Sequence record: PV018828
DNA length: 64,000 nt
Source: Escherichia phage YW01
Strand: one strand, 5' to 3'
The notes under the pieces were generated by a model, which was not told the DNA's origin, made no database searches, and saw only the letters and a program-made list of their open reading frames with translations. The stretch's first letter is position 1; each line of letters opens with the position of its first letter. The position numbers and the translations under genes were made by a program. Positions 49,071-57,213 of this stretch are shown piece after piece.

Positions 49071-49231
49071 TATCTGTGGATAACCTGCTCTTAAAATATC
49101 TATCCGACGGATGTTTGAGGAACACTCCTCGCCCTAGCATCGGCCCCATACGGGAAATATATTAAGATTAGGTTAGTTGAGTCAGAATAACTCACATAGC
49201 CCTCCGAAGAAGGCTATAGGCGTTACTACAA

Positions 49232-49450
49232 CTAAAAATCACCTGATTTTACAAAATCATCACTAAGAATTTCGTCAATCTCTTTGCTGGTCAAATCTTT
49301 CCTGAACCAGCAACAAGGAACATCCACCCATTGACCAGAGTTGTTCTCTACAGAGCATCTATTCCCTGTCTTACTCTTGCATTTATAGGATTTTCCTTTA
49401 TCTAGACGGTAGTGTAACCTGTAAACGACAGACACGAGTGTTATCATCAC
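49232..49450 (-). CDS. hypothetical protein
   Basis: 72-aa ORF. Confidence 0.35.
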   Translation of the reverse strand: MMITLVSVVYRLHYRLDKGKSYKCKSKTGNRCSVENNSGQWVDVPCCWFRKDLTSKEIDEILSDDFVKSGDF

Positions 49451-49680
49451 TCGCCTTTCTTAGCACGATCTTTGGCAGTTTTGCCAGTGCGGATGCGATG
49501 GGAAACGTTAACCAGAGTTCCACCATCAACTACAGTAACGCTCTTGTTTTTAGCCAGATCAAACACAGTCTTCTCTGTGCCGCCCAAGCGAATTTGCTTA
49601 GGCTCACTGAAGGTTTGGGTTGATTTAGATTGGAACTGGAATGGTTGACGGATTGCATCAATTGCGCTTACTTTAGACAT
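49447..49680 (-). CDS. hypothetical protein
   Basis: 77-aa ORF. Confidence 0.35.
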   Translation of the reverse strand: MSKVSAIDAIRQPFQFQSKSTQTFSEPKQIRLGGTEKTVFDLAKNKSVTVVDGGTLVNVSHRIRTGKTAKDRAKKGE

Positions 49681-49900
49681 AGGGGAAATTCCTTAAAAAA
49701 GTTATGGCTGCGTAGAGGGAATTCCCTACGCAAATTGGGCCGCCCACAGAGAGGCGTCATAGTACTAAAAGGAGGAGAGAAGAGAGCCTATTTAGCTACC
49801 TTTTTCTGTCCGTTTACGAACCAGATAATTGAACCGTCAGGCTGTCGTTGACCGAAGCCTTTCTGGTTGATTAATTCATCATAAGAATGTGCTTTCAGTC

Positions 49901-50167
49901 TCATTTGTTTTCCTGTGGAGTTAAGATAATTTCAGCTTTACTGAACTTCTCACCAACAACCATATCACCAGAGATGACACGCAGTTCTCCAGTGCCTAAG
50001 TTAACAGCTCCAGCAGGTTGACAACCCCTGCTTTTAGCTGTCATCATATAAACCTTTTGATTTTGGCACTCTTGGAGAGTGAACACATCTGACATATTTA
50101 GATCTCTGACGCGGAGGATTTTTTCCTCTTTGTCTTTAACTTTAATGTTAATAATGCTCATATGCAC
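49901..50167 (-). CDS. small protein, expanded paralog family member
   Basis: Shares L.L..L..(G/S)D.F + Y/W + VNL..G pattern with at least 9 other small ORFs. Confidence 0.45.
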   Translation of the reverse strand: MHMSIINIKVKDKEEKILRVRDLNMSDVFTLQECQNQKVYMMTAKSRGCQPAGAVNLGTGELRVISGDMVVGEKFSKAEIILTPQENK

Positions 50168-50412
50168 TACTCCTGAACCACTGACATACGAATCATTTCT
50201 ACCTGATCATCAAGACCTTTAACAGATAACATACCTGTGGAAAGGTTTACCACAGGAACCCAACCACTGGCTATACGGATGTTACCAGAAGCATTTTCAA
50301 CCCTCATGTAATACTGAGGAGAGGCACTTCCGTTCTGAACCACGAAAGGGTTTCCGGGAATGATTGTTTCCAATCGTACCGTATTATCCTTTTTCTTTGG
50401 GATGATTTTCAT
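50167..50412 (-). CDS. small protein, expanded paralog family member
   Basis: VRLETIIPGNPF..YYMRV..VNLSTG. Confidence 0.45.
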   Translation of the reverse strand: MKIIPKKKDNTVRLETIIPGNPFVVQNGSASPQYYMRVENASGNIRIASGWVPVVNLSTGMLSVKGLDDQVEMIRMSVVQE

Positions 50413-50660
50413 TGCGTATTACCCACCAAAAGTTCTGCTGATACAGGAACAACCTGACAACGACCAAGAGGGGCTGAAACAACCCCATCACCTAGCCGGA
50501 GAGTAGGTATCCGGTTATCTGGGATTTTGATGTTAGGACTTAAGGTAACAATCCCTTTCACATAAAGATCTTCATTGTGTGGGAATTTAAACACAGAACC
50601 ATTAGCTAGAGAGCTTAGCTCTACTGCTTCTACTTCCTCTTTCTTATATGTGATTTTCAT
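50409..50660 (-). CDS. small protein, expanded paralog family member
   Basis: VELSSLANGSVFKFPHNEDLYVKG close to 51523..51744. Confidence 0.45.
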   Translation of the reverse strand: MKITYKKEEVEAVELSSLANGSVFKFPHNEDLYVKGIVTLSPNIKIPDNRIPTLRLGDGVVSAPLGRCQVVPVSAELLVGNTQ

Positions 50661-50668
50661 ATTGATTC

Positions 50669-50980
50669 CTATTTAAGTTTGAGGCTAATGTTAAGGTGCA
50701 TACATGCCCTGTTCTGTACGGCAGAATAACTTCTACCGAGCATGTCAGCCATTCTCTGAATAGACATGAACCCAGCATTACGGATAAGGAACTGGTCTTC
50801 TTCTTTAGACCACTTGACTCGGATTACAGCTCTAGAAATACCGAACTTAGTGCAAGCTGTATTAACTGCATTCTCCGTTACATTCATAATCTGAGCAACC
50901 TCTTGAACCGAGTACTCTTTGATTAGTCTCCGAAGATTTTCAATCTGCATAGGAGTCCATATAGTTCTTCGTGCTTTCAT
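50669..50980 (-). CDS. DNA-binding protein with two helix-turn-helix-like repeats
   Basis: Tandem W..x6-8..L..segments (WTPMQIENLRRLIKEYSVQEVAQIM and WSKEEDQFLIRNAGFMSIQRMADML). Confidence 0.4.
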   Translation of the reverse strand: MKARRTIWTPMQIENLRRLIKEYSVQEVAQIMNVTENAVNTACTKFGISRAVIRVKWSKEEDQFLIRNAGFMSIQRMADMLGRSYSAVQNRACMHLNISLKLK

Positions 50981-51339
50981 ACATCCTCCAGTTAATTGTT
51001 AAAACTATCAGGGGAGCACACTAGCTCTGGGCCACGCTGTAGATATCGGCCTACCTTCCACAGCTAATCAGCTAATGTACTCTCCTAATAGTTTATGAAT
51101 AGGGGGAGGGGACGAATCCTCCCTTATCCTATTAATTAATATTGCATGTAAGACCTAACAATCGGTTGCCTTTGTAGGAATAAGCGTAAAGCCAATCCAG
51201 CACCAAACTCCCGCCCCCTTAGTGGGCTGGGTTATTAAAGGGTAACGCCCTTATGGGCTAGTTACATGAATGTTAGTTTGATAGGAGATCTGAAGTCCTA
51301 TCTCAAAGGACTCTCGTAAGAATCCTTCACGATAAGCTC

Positions 51340-51513
51340 TTAACAAGATTGATCACATGGCTGATCACCACATGTTTTACAGATCACTGGTGAATAACTA
51401 CAGGCAGGATACACTGATACACCATCAAACGTTTCACACCCACAATCAGGGCATATACCATTGGATTCCATGTCATCGTCATCATACACTTCTCCACCAC
51501 CATAGCAGCTCAT
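51340..51513 (-). CDS. small Cys-rich (zinc-binding-like) protein, 57 aa
   Basis: AGGAG RBS 5 nt before ATG; 12 Cys; antisense to ORF-track 51357..51542. Confidence 0.35.
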   Translation of the reverse strand: MSCYGGGEVYDDDDMESNGICPDCGCETFDGVSVYPACSYSPVICKTCGDQPCDQSC

Positions 51514-55713: not shown

Positions 55714-55715
55714 TG

Positions 55716-55976
55716 TTAATCCACCTTATTGGTAAGCCGAGCATTGCTGACCTTCTTGATGACTGTATTACCTTCATCCGTTGCAATAACGCCACAGGAA
55801 AGATTGATATAACTTCTCTTGTCTGTTGTCCCAAACTTCTGACTAGATAACATATAGTAATTCTCCCCATCCAGAGGGAACTGGAATACATCACCTGATT
55901 CTAAATCCCCAAGAGTTAAAACCTTTGGGGCGTTGTTCATATCAATTATCACTGTTAATCTCCTGCTGCTTAGCAA
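55716..55976 (-). CDS. small protein, expanded paralog family member
   Basis: LTLGDLESGDVFQFPLDGENYYML..INLSCG. Confidence 0.45.
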   Translation of the reverse strand: MLSSRRLTVIIDMNNAPKVLTLGDLESGDVFQFPLDGENYYMLSSQKFGTTDKRSYINLSCGVIATDEGNTVIKKVSNARLTNKVD

Positions 55977-56238
55977 TAGCTACTCGCAAGTCTTCATTAG
56001 CACGAGCAAGGCGTAACACTTCGTGATTGAGGTTCTGAAGACGCTTGTTTCTGTCCTCAACTTGCATAATAAGATCGTTGAGTGTTACTTTAACTTTCTC
56101 ATTATACATCTCATCCACTCGAACTAGGGATTTATACATTCTCTCCCAGCTTGCTGCTTTGTTTCTGAGAATAATAAATCCTAGAACGCTGATAGTTAAA
56201 CAGCTTACAAAAAGGAATTTATATACTTCTAAAGTCAT
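55942..56238 (-). CDS. membrane-anchored coiled-coil protein
   Basis: N-terminal TM FLFVSCLTISVLGFIIL then heptad-rich region. Confidence 0.4.
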   Translation of the reverse strand: MTLEVYKFLFVSCLTISVLGFIILRNKAASWERMYKSLVRVDEMYNEKVKVTLNDLIMQVEDRNKRLQNLNHEVLRLARANEDLRVAIAKQQEINSDN

Positions 56239-56437
56239 ATTATTTACCCTTTATCAGAGATTAAAAGTAATATTATTTAAGTAAGTTATATTTAGTAAAC
56301 TTATTTTCTAAGAAATTTTCAAAGGGTCTATATACAGAGCATTACCTATAGTCCCAGAATACTACCATCTTTTTCAATAAATTTACTAAGTGGTTGGTTT
56401 ATAAAGGAATTTAGTTTGTCAAATCTGGCACTAGAGA

Positions 56438-56827
56438 TTATTCCCTAGAGCTATTATCGAACACTAAATCGCCACAATATATAGGATTGGCATACCATTT
56501 TGGCACCCCTTCGCTCTTACTCTGAAAGTAAGTCCCACTATACAGCGGAACATAATTCTTCTTAAGGGCACGTTTAGCAAGTCGCTCGCTTTCTCCAATG
56601 GCTTGCTTAGTCATCGGATTTTTATCACGAATCAGCTTTACATAACGTTTATAAGGTTTCTCCTGTTTTAATAGTACCGGAATCCACTCAAACTGGTTCT
56701 TTTGTCTTATCACCTGTTCAGCGGTCAGTTTTCGTTGGGCCATTCTATTTATCACGGTATCCGCAACTAAAGCCTTACATGCGGTTGGCTGATTCCCTGC
56801 CTCATAATAAATAGTCAATGTCAACAT
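56438..56827 (-). CDS. SleB/CwlJ-type cell-wall hydrolase-like protein
   Basis: LTIYYEAGNQP..ALVADTVINRM resembles Hydrolase_2 family signature. Confidence 0.4.
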   Translation of the reverse strand: MLTLTIYYEAGNQPTACKALVADTVINRMAQRKLTAEQVIRQKNQFEWIPVLLKQEKPYKRYVKLIRDKNPMTKQAIGESERLAKRALKKNYVPLYSGTYFQSKSEGVPKWYANPIYCGDLVFDNSSRE

Positions 56828-56875
56828 TAGCTGGGCCGTTGTTATCAGAACTTGCTACCTCCTGTTTTACGGGCA

Positions 56876-56902
56876 TAAAAAAGCCCCAGCCGTAGCCGGG
56901 GC
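56876..56902 (-). terminator. intrinsic terminator (first of tandem pair)
   Basis: Minus-strand GCCCCGGC-loop-GCTGGGGC hairpin followed by TTTTTTA. Confidence 0.55.
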
Positions 56903-56965
56903 AAACCTGAAAGCAACACATGACCGTTGCTATAAATACACTCGCAAATGCACTTACAGCAACGC

Positions 56966-56986
56966 AAAAAGCCGCTCAAAGGCGGC
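56966..56986 (-). terminator. intrinsic terminator (second of tandem pair)
   Basis: Minus-strand GCCGCC-tttga-GCGGC followed by TTTTTG. Confidence 0.5.
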
Positions 56987-57213
56987 TATGCGGAAGCTTC
57001 AAATGGGGAGAAGGCACGACGCGACAGAAAGAGCGTCATAGTACTAAAAAGAGAGGCTATTGGAGAGGTTACTTATTGCCTTCCTTAATGCCTTGTTTTC
57101 TTGTTTAACCAATTCGTTTTCTTCTTGCAAGGATGCTACCAGATGGACCAGAACATCAACTACTGCATCACCTTGCCGCATCTCTCTGACTTTATTTAGA
57201 ATCTCTGAATAAA

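Follow-up and report, generated by a model that had tools for sequence, protein, structure and literature searches.

The early operon of Escherichia phage YW01 (sequence record PV018828), of which a stretch of 64,000 nucleotides (nt) was analysed and is called the window below, carries two pairs of repeated elements between its genes. Pair B consists of two paralogous copies of an RNA domain of about 125 nt with five helices, B1 at 49096-49225 and B2 at 54669-54790 on the minus strand. Its pairs are kept by compensatory changes beyond what shuffled or slid alignments give, and B is therefore a good candidate for a new family of conserved structured RNA. Pair A, with the copies A1 and A2, is a short conserved box that runs into a small GC-rich hairpin. 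We read A and B jointly, and hold this reading and the mechanisms proposed with it with moderate confidence, as sense-strand RNA punctuation elements of a long early operon, neither promoters nor coding sequence. What we observed in its favour are the repeats, their conservation over three genera, the structure of B together with its covariation, and the terminators; features of a promoter are lacking. A preliminary description of this DNA had proposed reused, conserved modules linked to hairpins rather than coding sequence, and this idea was borne out. It had named beforehand a lack of conservation in related phages as something that would speak against it; we looked at these relatives and the elements are conserved there. 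Of the two roles that it offered, that of processing or attenuation hairpins fits the evidence best, whereas that of promoters found no support.

By similarity to its relatives, the whole stretch was assigned to a phiEco32-like podophage of the genus Kuravirus. Over the 8.4 kb around the elements the identity is 97% with Escherichia phage KM01 and about 92-96% with SU10, Bas91, NJ01 and others, and phiEco32 itself carries these A and B elements. Between about 46 and 64 kb every real gene lies on the minus strand; judged by homology with SU10 and phiEco32, this block is that of the early genes, transcribed by the sigma-70 polymerase of the host. A and B are all read on the minus strand, which is the sense strand of the genes, a point not recognised in the preliminary description. 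In the published promoter and terminator table of SU10 the early promoters are placed solely at the far upstream end, with no entry at the A or B sites. A promoter scan of the window found strong sigma-70 promoters on the minus strand at 63297, 60969 and 60335, matching the early promoters of SU10.

A structured RNA domain repeated in the early operon

The 12-mer CACATAGCCCTC, given in the preliminary description as part of pair B, does occur exactly twice, at 49193 and 54752. Pair B had been presented there as two short words; it is actually a homologous domain of 122-130 nt, whose real size and architecture had been overlooked. The two words GAGGAACAC(T/C)CCTC, which had been taken as counterparts, are not positional homologues, the word of B1 being the apical hairpin HP3 and that of B2 a hairpin or strand beside HP1. 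In order, the domain comprises a leader AGUAAC, which often holds the stop codon of the upstream gene, then HP1, next either the small hairpin HP1b or a helix P0 enclosing HP1, a strand that is conserved (in B1, CUAACCUAAUCUUAA), HP2, the stem P, an internal loop and HP3. HP1 has an invariant base, UAUAGCC/GGCUAU, and a variable top that covaries; HP2 is a stem of 3 base pairs (bp) with an RUAU loop, and P has 6 bp. The 7x7 internal loop, CUAGGGN/RAACAUC, is invariant across the 38 unique B sequences that were obtained from 15 GenBank or IMG/VR loci and 21 metagenome loci.

Over these 38 sequences 97.9% of the cells are in standard pairs, and compensatory changes were found in 9 of the 24 pairs (three in P and two in HP3). 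The covariation score is 0.352, compared with 0.145 +/- 0.009 after shuffling (none of 500 shuffles reaches it) and with a maximum of 0.093 for partners shifted by 1-3 columns. Stem P reads CCGAUG/CGUCGG in B1, ACACCG/CGGUGU in B2, UCACCG/CGGUGA in the B2 of Suseptimavirus and UCGGUG/CGCCGA in phage 7-11, and HP2 appears as CCC/GGG, GGC/GCC or GCC/GGC. On the other strand the G-U pairs of HP1 and P would turn into A-C mismatches, which identifies the sense RNA as the molecule that folds. When segments with P, the loop and HP3 are folded alone, the minimum free energy (MFE) fold equals the comparative structure. The stability of the folds is unusual, with z = -4.0 for B1 and z = -3.55 for the intergenic gap that holds B2.

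The hairpins of pair B had been located 10-15 nt past a gene stop. HP1 lies 14 nt after TAG (49232-49234) at B1, in agreement with this, and 9 nt after TAA (54792-54794) at B2, just under that range. As had been stated, there is no U-tract at the hairpin of either copy; the U-tract terminators that follow A2 (T1 and T2) and B1 (Ta and Tb) had, however, been overlooked.

The domain is conserved in Kuravirus, in Suseptimavirus and in the 7-11-like Salmonella phages. A covariance model finds exactly two copies in the window, with no third one, the same number in each of 4E8 and SU7, and a single one per 28-kb locus of the 7-11-like phages. A strict core pattern, searched in IMG/VR and in metagenomes, gave only contigs of Kuravirus, Suseptimavirus and 7-11-like phages, plus two apparent chance matches. 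At the gathering score, Rfam 15 over the window returned the tRNA-Arg at 52682-52754 alone and no B family, and with relaxed limits the region 48.8-57.4 kb (E <=5) and the B1 and B2 regions (E <=10) gave only weak, terminator-driven matches. The B domain is thus absent from Rfam, and it was previously undescribed. A tRNA or tRNA-like identity of B was rejected, ARAGORN and Rfam giving only the tRNA-Arg. The gene upstream of each copy varies between phages, and the element always starts with AGUAAC. A duplication of a gene together with its element was also discarded, as the proteins that flank B1 are unrelated to those that flank B2.

The variation within B includes indels that are not divisible by 3, loop indels of 2-3 nt and inversions of hairpin loops, which argue against coding. 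In HP3, phiEco32 has the loop GAGGAACACTCCTC, the reverse complement of the GAGGAGTGTTCCTC of this window, and GAGGAGTATTCCTC and the GAGGAATACTCCTC of NJ01 are related in the same way. Among 22 B1 sequences, HP3 of B1 (49117-49130) has 12 different loop variants, and the differences between close relatives look like a flip-flop inversion of the hairpin loop at the DNA level.

The B1 unit, the B2 tail and the match to the nrdD leader

B1 belongs to a unit of about 215 nt. According to RNAalifold on 16 such units, it is made up of P0, HP1, a long-range helix (UAACCU..UCUUAA with UUAAGA..AGGUUA) that encloses HP2 and P/HP3, and an extended terminator, Tb, at its end. In these units 98.5% of the cells are paired and 12 pairs are compensatory, three of them in the long-range helix and others in Tb, a result that none of 500 shuffles reached. 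A covarying Tb is kept in every B1 unit, those of the 7-11-like phages included, and it is annotated as a terminator in the records of 7-11, SU7 and 4E8; in Kuravirus it is preceded by Ta, an AT-rich terminator-like hairpin. The next gene after Ta and Tb has its ATG at 48995.

B2 is followed, within its 358-nt intergenic gap, by a tail of about 230 nt of conserved hairpins. Two of them (54620-54643 and 54581-54608, 37 nt apart) have identical 8-nt loops, UAGGGGUA; the tail also has a long-range stem, and one more hairpin immediately precedes the ribosome-binding site (RBS) of a gene for 46 amino acids (aa). RNAalifold of the gap showed 21 pairs with compensatory changes. The same gap holds four UAGGG motifs (in the twin loops, in the CUAGGG of the B core and in the CUAGGG at 54487-54492), which may constitute a repeated binding motif.

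The B1 unit, taken as 221 nt, has a sole match in Escherichia coli. Its tail (49063-49099) is identical in 34 of 37 positions to the leader of nrdD, the gene of the anaerobic ribonucleotide reductase, in antisense orientation, in a region located 10-47 nt upstream of the nrdD start codon. The NrdR boxes and the -10 element of nrdD are 130 nt or more upstream of its ATG, which places the matched region within the transcribed 5' leader. Within the nrdD-like tail, at 49075-49083 on the minus strand, there is a perfect DnaA box, TTATCCACA, which is kept in three genera and adjoins AT-rich DNA. Throughout Enterobacterales, nrdD leaders keep the same box in an extended form, CTGTGGATAACC, about 20-30 nt upstream of the start codon, and this conservation suggests an undescribed DnaA-type control of nrdD. 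The flanks of the box in the phage are closer to the E. coli nrdD leader than to the versions of Citrobacter, Klebsiella and Enterobacter. The duplex predicted between the B1 tail and the nrdD leader has -58.8 kcal/mol, compared with -26 +/- 3.7 for 300 shuffled tails, and spans positions -60 to -1. Half of the nrdD-like stretch is already the 3' strand of the conserved intramolecular long-range helix, and across genera little of it apart from the DnaA box plus GG is invariant. In the B2 gap and in a third large gap, at 50981-51339, no E. coli match was found. The match of the B1 tail may reflect an antisense role, a DnaA-binding role or an ancient capture of host DNA.

With an antisense role, B1 would be a trans-acting phage RNA whose tail pairs with the nrdD mRNA leader just upstream of the Shine-Dalgarno sequence and alters its translation or stability, the B domain being a stabilising or factor-binding scaffold. 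We regard this explanation, which is compatible with the reading of B as punctuation, as possible but rather doubtful. It gains from the fact that the only E. coli match, at 34/37, is antisense to a transcribed target, from a duplex far below those of the shuffled tails, from flanks that fit the E. coli leader best and from an intrinsic terminator at the end of the unit, as in small RNAs (sRNAs). Furthermore, the B2 gap, the third gap and the A regions have no E. coli match, which shows that the match to nrdD is not a general property of the spacers. However, one half of the antisense segment already has its partner inside B1, in a conserved helix that covaries, and a constraint at the DNA level would explain equally well that the DnaA box plus GG is what is invariant across genera; besides, phage 7-11 keeps only about 18 nt of the match. 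A broader version, to which we likewise give a minor share of belief, takes the B1 unit as a phage regulatory RNA built on the new B scaffold, with a tail antisense to the nrdD leader, and B2 as a second RNA with a different effector tail that carries the UAGGGGUA loops. If the antisense role of B1 were true, the phage would reprogram the deoxynucleoside triphosphate (dNTP) supply of the host, or exploit or mimic a DnaA-box control of nrdD, and its target would be hard for the host to mutate, being a DnaA box conserved across Enterobacterales.

A role at the DNA level would make the elements boundary sequences, retained for the homologous recombination that they mediate between mosaic phage genomes, and the tail of B1 a DnaA site (origin-related, roadblock or titration). 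Both A and both B sites coincide with junctions of differing gene content among relatives, the perfect TTATCCACA stands beside AT-rich DNA in three genera, with CTGTGGATAACC conserved in the nrdD leaders of Enterobacterales, and the loop inversions of HP3 show that palindromes are active at the DNA level. Nevertheless, the compensatory changes and the sense-specific G-U pairs show selection on RNA folding, beyond sequence identity, and recombination alone leaves the invariant internal loop unexplained. The perfect DnaA box is a lone one: near-matches with up to one mismatch amount to 23 in the window, compared with 18.3 expected, which is no enrichment, and there is no inflection of GC skew near 49 kb. 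For these two reasons a replication origin at the DnaA box was rejected, and we consider a DNA-level role in general as improbable.

The box and hairpin of pair A

The 17-mer GCGTCATAGTACTAAAA is a real repeat, present exactly twice (49754-49770 and 57033-57049) as the preliminary description had stated; the window has no further copy of it even at up to three mismatches, and two matches were obtained in none of 100 shuffles. The ungapped repeat measures 21 nt, with 95% identity. Similarity of the flanks, which had been put at about 40 nt, was confirmed, and its extent is about 50 nt when one indel of about 9 nt is admitted, in the form AATAG(G/C)CTCTCT ... TTTTAGTACTATGACGC ... TCT(C/T)TCTGT. 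Both copies adjoin GC hairpins, also as described, A1 those at 49741-49756 and 49710-49731, and A2 the one at 57018-57037 and T1 at 56970-56987. In the hairpin at 49710-49731 the T-run begins 9 nt past the stem, so it is not a canonical terminator.

Kuravirus and Suseptimavirus together supplied 31 unique variants; in these both sites retain the core TACT(A/G)TGACG(C/T) between diverged flanks, and the A1 core is kept at its site in every variant examined. The two sites change in concert: in Kuravirus both read TAGTACTATG, in Suseptimavirus A(A/G)CTACTATG and in the 4E8/KBNP1711 clade A(A/G)CTACTGTG. Such concerted change suggests that both sites share one recognition partner, or that gene conversion has acted between them. 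The small GC hairpin (4-8 bp, with a pyrimidine-rich loop of 8-11 nt), which has an equivalent in 29 of the 31 variants, takes its 5' arm from the 3' part of the core. A U-run follows this hairpin at A1 and A2 in Suseptimavirus and, in the 4E8 clade, at A1; the clade of this window lacks it. In GenBank records the hairpin is called a terminator in SU7 (A2) and in 4E8 (A1). The A sites are found just past stop codons, at mosaic junctions and upstream of stronger hairpins or terminators, and they are homology breakpoints between genera, the match of Suseptimavirus at A1 ending 6 nt beyond the box. The A1 and A2 regions gave no match in E. coli. Two further proposals for these sites were rejected, namely a long-range pairing between the A1 box and the CAUAACU ahead of the next gene, for which inspection of the variants by eye revealed no consistent covariation, and a leader-peptide attenuation at A2-T1, where the open reading frame (ORF) has only 5 codons in many relatives.

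The preliminary description had suggested a promoter with a 5' stem-loop. All A variants do contain a -10-like TACTAT or TACTGT, of the form TAnnnT, which alone is insufficient for a promoter. The sigma-70 scan gave no site at A1 or A2; neither has a -35 hexamer 16-18 bp upstream nor TG at -15/-14, and the upstream sequence differs between copies and clades. The consensus of gp36, the phage sigma factor (tAATGTAtA, centred near -11), is absent from TTTTAGTACTATGACGC in any register. With no -35, no conserved spacing and no gp36 motif, the sigma-70 and gp36 promoter readings of pair A were rejected, and from A2 such a promoter would fire into two terminators. A promoter-like 9/12 match inside B1 (49185-49156) was rejected too, since the 4E8 and SU7 clades have a 3-nt insertion that destroys its spacing.

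A different kind of promoter, specific to the phage, would have only a -10 (TACTAT plus a GC-rich discriminator) and would be used by the host polymerase with a phage factor, for which the helix-turn-helix (HTH) protein encoded at 50669-50980 is a candidate. The transcripts would start with the small hairpin, and A1...B1-Tb and A2...T2 would be autonomous, moron-like cassettes. In support of it, the only variable position of TACT(A/G)T is -8, with the critical -12T, -11A and -7T kept, the changes at the two sites run in parallel, as a single trans factor would lead one to expect, both sites begin segments of variable gene content that end in terminators, and the candidate protein matches Sigma70_r4_2 (E = 1.6e-7). 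We nonetheless judge it unlikely, not only for the missing -35, TG extension and upstream conservation, the negative scan and the unmatched gp36 consensus, but also for the first terminator, which comes about 45 nt past A2, and for the hairpin plus U-run of Suseptimavirus and the 4E8 clade, itself terminator-like.

The repeats could also be small coding genes, with an ORF that starts at an ATG/GTG in the A box or with the short ORFs annotated in the B regions. The sole variable base of the A core swaps ATG and GTG, AACTACTATGACGG is an annotated gene start in 7-11-like phages, and some records annotate ORFs of 30-55 aa in the B gaps. We give this explanation hardly any credence: a Shine-Dalgarno sequence is lacking and the upstream tract is pyrimidine-rich, the ORF of A2 is cut to 5 codons by TAG in phiEco32, Bas91, LAMP and NJ01, the length of a T-run shifts the A1 frame, and B has the indels, loop inversions and stem covariation described above.

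T1 and T2 follow A2 in all relatives examined. The interval between them (56877-56987) is an insertion hot spot, of about 60 nt in this phage; in relatives it holds gp119 and gp118 (phiEco32), a coding sequence for 197 aa (KM01) or an extra hairpin with a third terminator (SU7). In the Bas91 record an ORF of 44 aa, named 'tail protein', lies over T1/T2 and is probably spurious. At 56700-56860 on the minus strand, SU7 and 4E8 have CTTTTGACATTG in place of the program-called start of Hydrolase_2 (ATG 56827), and the true start lies probably about 120 nt further downstream. In that case T2 would be followed by a conserved non-coding leader of about 130 nt with the hairpin CCGCTTGCAAAGCATTAGTAGCGG. 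The coordinates of all these elements are collected in Table 1.

Table 1. Positions of the elements of pairs A and B and of the terminators and boxA-like copies, numbered along the window.
Feature	Positions	Strand	Description
A1 box	49754-49770	-	Sense TTTTAGTACTATGACGC, core TACTATGACGC; exact 17-mer repeat
A1 small GC hairpin	49741-49756	-	CGCCU/GGGCG, pyrimidine-rich loop CUCUGU; -7.4 kcal/mol; 5' arm overlaps the box
A1 8-bp hairpin	49710-49731	-	GCGUAGGG-AAUUCC-CUCUACGC; between A1 and the RBS of the next gene (49447-49680)
A2 box	57033-57049	-	TAG within the box is the stop of a 57-aa ORF (57044-57217)
A2 small hairpin	57018-57037	-	GACGC-UCUUUCUGUC-GCGUC, up to 8 bp with G-U; -9.3 kcal/mol, z = -2.8
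Terminator T1	56965-56987	-	AGCCGC-CUUUGA-GCGGCU, then UUUUU; from scan; about 45 nt downstream of A2
Terminator T2	56877-56902	-	GCCCCGGC-UACG-GCUGGGGC, then UUUUUU; from scan
B1 domain	49096-49225	-	Covariance model 135.8 bits, E = 1.4e-24
B1 HP1	49195-49218	-	10-bp stem, UUCG tetraloop; -14.3 kcal/mol, z = -3.3; upper stem covaries
B1 P/loop/HP3	49104-49143	-	P CCGAUG/CGUCGG; loop CUAGGGC/AAACAUC; HP3 GAGGA-GUGU-UCCUC
B1 tail segment	49063-49099	-	ATATTTTAAGAGCAGGTTATCCACAGATATTGGGTAA; 3' strand of the long-range helix; DnaA box 49075-49083
Ta, Tb	49015-49074	-	Ta AT-rich, 49057-49074 plus U-run; Tb 49022-49039 plus UUUUUU, flanking UUUAAA arms
B2 domain	54669-54790	-	Covariance model 111.2 bits, E = 1e-19; upstream TAA (54792-54794) in leader AAGUAAC
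B2 HP1	54754-54783	-	9-10 bp stem, 12-nt loop, z = -3.3; enclosed by P0
B2 P0	54788-54793 with 54744-54749	-	AACACC with GGUGUU; covaries C-G, U-G, U-A
B2 P/loop/HP3	54677-54712	-	P ACACCG/CGGUGU; loop CUAGGGA/GAACAUC; HP3 GAG-CUUG-CUC
B2 tail	54434-54668	-	Rest of the 358-nt intergenic gap; about 230 nt of conserved hairpins
boxA-like copies	61006-61017; 60897-60908; 60437-60448; 60204-60215; 59881-59892	-	Early leader

Terminators and boxA-like sequences of the early operon

The scan places intrinsic terminators within the early operon at 58434-58461, at T1 and T2, at 54066-54090 and at Ta and Tb. The combination of a GC-rich hairpin and an immediate U-tract is seen at T1, T2, Ta and Tb, as well as in the A hairpin of Suseptimavirus and at A1 in the 4E8 clade; the A hairpins and HP1 of B do not have it in this window.

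The loop and arm of the A2 hairpin read CGCUCUUU, which is boxA-like. Compared with the boxA consensus (C/U)GCUCUUUA(ACAA), A2 has CGCUCUUUC and A1 has CGCCUCUCU; the match is lost in other clades, where A2 reads CGCUCUUC or CGUUUCUC, neither of them boxA-like. As a boxA identity holds solely for A2 in one clade, it was rejected for pair A.

The motif CGCTCTTT is enriched in the window, with 10 occurrences for 1.5 expected, nine of the ten on the minus strand. In the non-coding region of about 1.9 kb around the early promoters (59881-61417, minus strand) we observed an array of 5-6 copies of a boxA-like sequence of the rrn/lambda type, C(C)GCTCTTTAA(A/C/T)AA. The copy at 60897-60908 is just downstream of the promoter 60941-60969, and that at 60204-60215 is downstream of the promoter 60307-60335. 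The copy at 60437-60448 is a perfect GCTCTTTAACAA, and CGCTCTTT is present also at 61141 and 61410; the leader of SU7 likewise has CCGCTCTTTAACAA. The array suggests a Nus-factor antitermination of the early transcripts. A Nus-factor complex is described for rRNA operons and CRISPR arrays (PMC5725501, PMC7665894). In our search of the literature we found nothing that links phiEco32 with boxA, antitermination, sRNA or RNase III, and a phage transcript map is not among the contents of the svsR/Kuravirus paper.

The B copies might themselves be processive antiterminator RNAs acting in cis, like put of HK022. They would alter the elongating polymerase and let it pass the terminators, namely Ta/Tb after B1 and 54066-54090 after B2. 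Each genome has two paralogous structured RNAs with conserved loops and covarying stems, and each is upstream of terminators that have to be read through for the expression of downstream early genes, such as the homologue of gp79. We find this very unlikely in view of the five helices of B, compared with two in put, and of its position in the middle of the operon instead of just after a promoter; moreover, the boxA-like array after the early promoters could already supply antitermination.

Other structured gaps and neighbouring genes

The tRNA-Arg gene (anticodon UCU, about 52679-52754, minus strand) lies inside the early operon, overlaps the end of a homing-endonuclease ORF (52745-53167) and is followed by a structured gap of 146 nt. 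Between A1 and B2, at 50669-50980 on the minus strand, is the gene of an early protein of 103 aa, named 'D5-like transcriptional regulator' in other records. Its match to Sigma70_r4_2 (Sigma-70 region 4, PF08281), with the E value given above, makes it a possible promoter-recognition or anti-sigma-type factor.

Upstream of this HTH gene is the third large intergenic gap (50981-51339, minus strand), of 359 nt and with an MFE of -129 kcal/mol, which opens with a UACG-tetraloop hairpin directly after the upstream stop codon. This gap gave no match in E. coli and none with the B model, and it may be another structured RNA.

A possible layer of RNA-level control

In the reading of A and B as punctuation of the early RNA, the functional steps that we infer would be the following. 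HP1, placed 9-14 nt after a stop codon, would be a barrier to 3'-exonucleases or a processing boundary for the upstream message. The invariant internal loop between covarying helices is a candidate for a specific binding site of a protein or RNA partner, with the HP3 tetraloop free to vary. At B1, a part of the transcription would end at Tb, with a stable 3'-end RNA of about 215 nt as the product, and this termination would lower the read-through into the next block of genes. Pair A may be a weak terminator, a pause or a processing signal, recognised by one shared factor, ahead of T1/T2 and of the hairpin at 49710-49731. By analogy with known boxA systems, the read-through of the terminators in the early operon may rely on the boxA-like array just downstream of the early promoters, which would recruit a Nus-factor complex.

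Several points weigh against this reading. Every functional step at the A and B sites rests on inference. With 5 bp and no U-tract, the A hairpin of this clade is a poor terminator alone, and the A box is more conserved than the flank of a generic hairpin requires. The sequence TACTAT, which varies only where sigma-70 tolerates it, is compatible with an activator-dependent promoter, and its A/G position would likewise suit an ATG/GTG start codon. The segment of P, loop and HP3 (11 bp plus the loop) seems too short for a classical RNase III substrate. Lastly, the nrdD match and the DnaA box in the tail of B1 may permit a role at the DNA level.

The published annotations of the phiEco32-like early region comprise only promoters and a few terminators. 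The phages of this group are a model for the takeover of host transcription (the gp36 sigma factor and gp79) and are used as therapeutic coliphages. The duplicated RNA domain, the box-plus-hairpin signal, the clusters of terminators and the boxA-like array of the early operon point to an unexplored layer of control at the RNA level, which would involve termination and antitermination, processing and possibly a trans-acting RNA. The match to the nrdD leader is the most surprising result, and it offers a concrete link between a non-coding element of a phage and the nucleotide metabolism or the DnaA control of its host.

Comparison with known systems

None of the systems that we compared (the RNase III sites of T7, put, PeSL cassettes, and 3'-UTR or dual-terminator sRNAs) fits B as a family. 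In the early region of T7, a long polycistronic RNA made by the host polymerase from clustered strong promoters carries the RNase III sites R0.3-R1.3. Like these, B consists of paralogous intergenic hairpins past a stop codon, with a conserved internal loop and covarying stems, which would leave a 3' hairpin on the upstream message. In contrast to them, B has five helices and no sequence similarity, and P (6 bp), the 7x7 loop and HP3 (3-5 bp) are together below the roughly two helical turns that RNase III needs.

The putL and putR sites of HK022 are RNAs of about 65-70 nt with two stem-loops, close to a promoter. They share with B the presence of two paralogous cis RNAs per genome, the conserved loops, the compensatory stems and the position upstream of early-operon terminators; B differs from them in its length of about 125 nt, its place in the middle of the operon and its architecture. 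The PeSL (promoter-early stem-loop) cassettes of T4-type phages resemble A and B as short, repeated intergenic stem-loop modules at junctions of variable early genes or mosaic boundaries. Unlike A and B, neither of which has a sigma-70 early promoter, these cassettes contain a complete one.

The boxA-like copies of the phage leader, and CGCUCUUU at A2, are similar to the boxA/nut and rrn Nus-factor antitermination sites (PMC5725501, PMC7665894). Unlike such sites, what pair A has in common is the box upstream, and A1 differs with CGCCUCUCU. The sRNAs rrA, rrB and rrF lie between dual rrn terminators (PMC8144298). As in 3'-UTR or dual-terminator sRNAs, B1 is structured, co-transcribed with upstream genes and provided with an intrinsic terminator at its end, and downstream of A2 stand two tandem terminators, separated by a short conserved spacer; B1 and A2 are compared with these sRNAs on the basis of sequence and predicted structure. 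Finally, the phage copy of the nrdD-like sequence differs from the E. coli leader in being inverted relative to transcription and in being also one strand of a conserved RNA helix, and it agrees with that leader in 34 of 37 positions, including the DnaA box TTATCCACA and flanks of the E. coli type.

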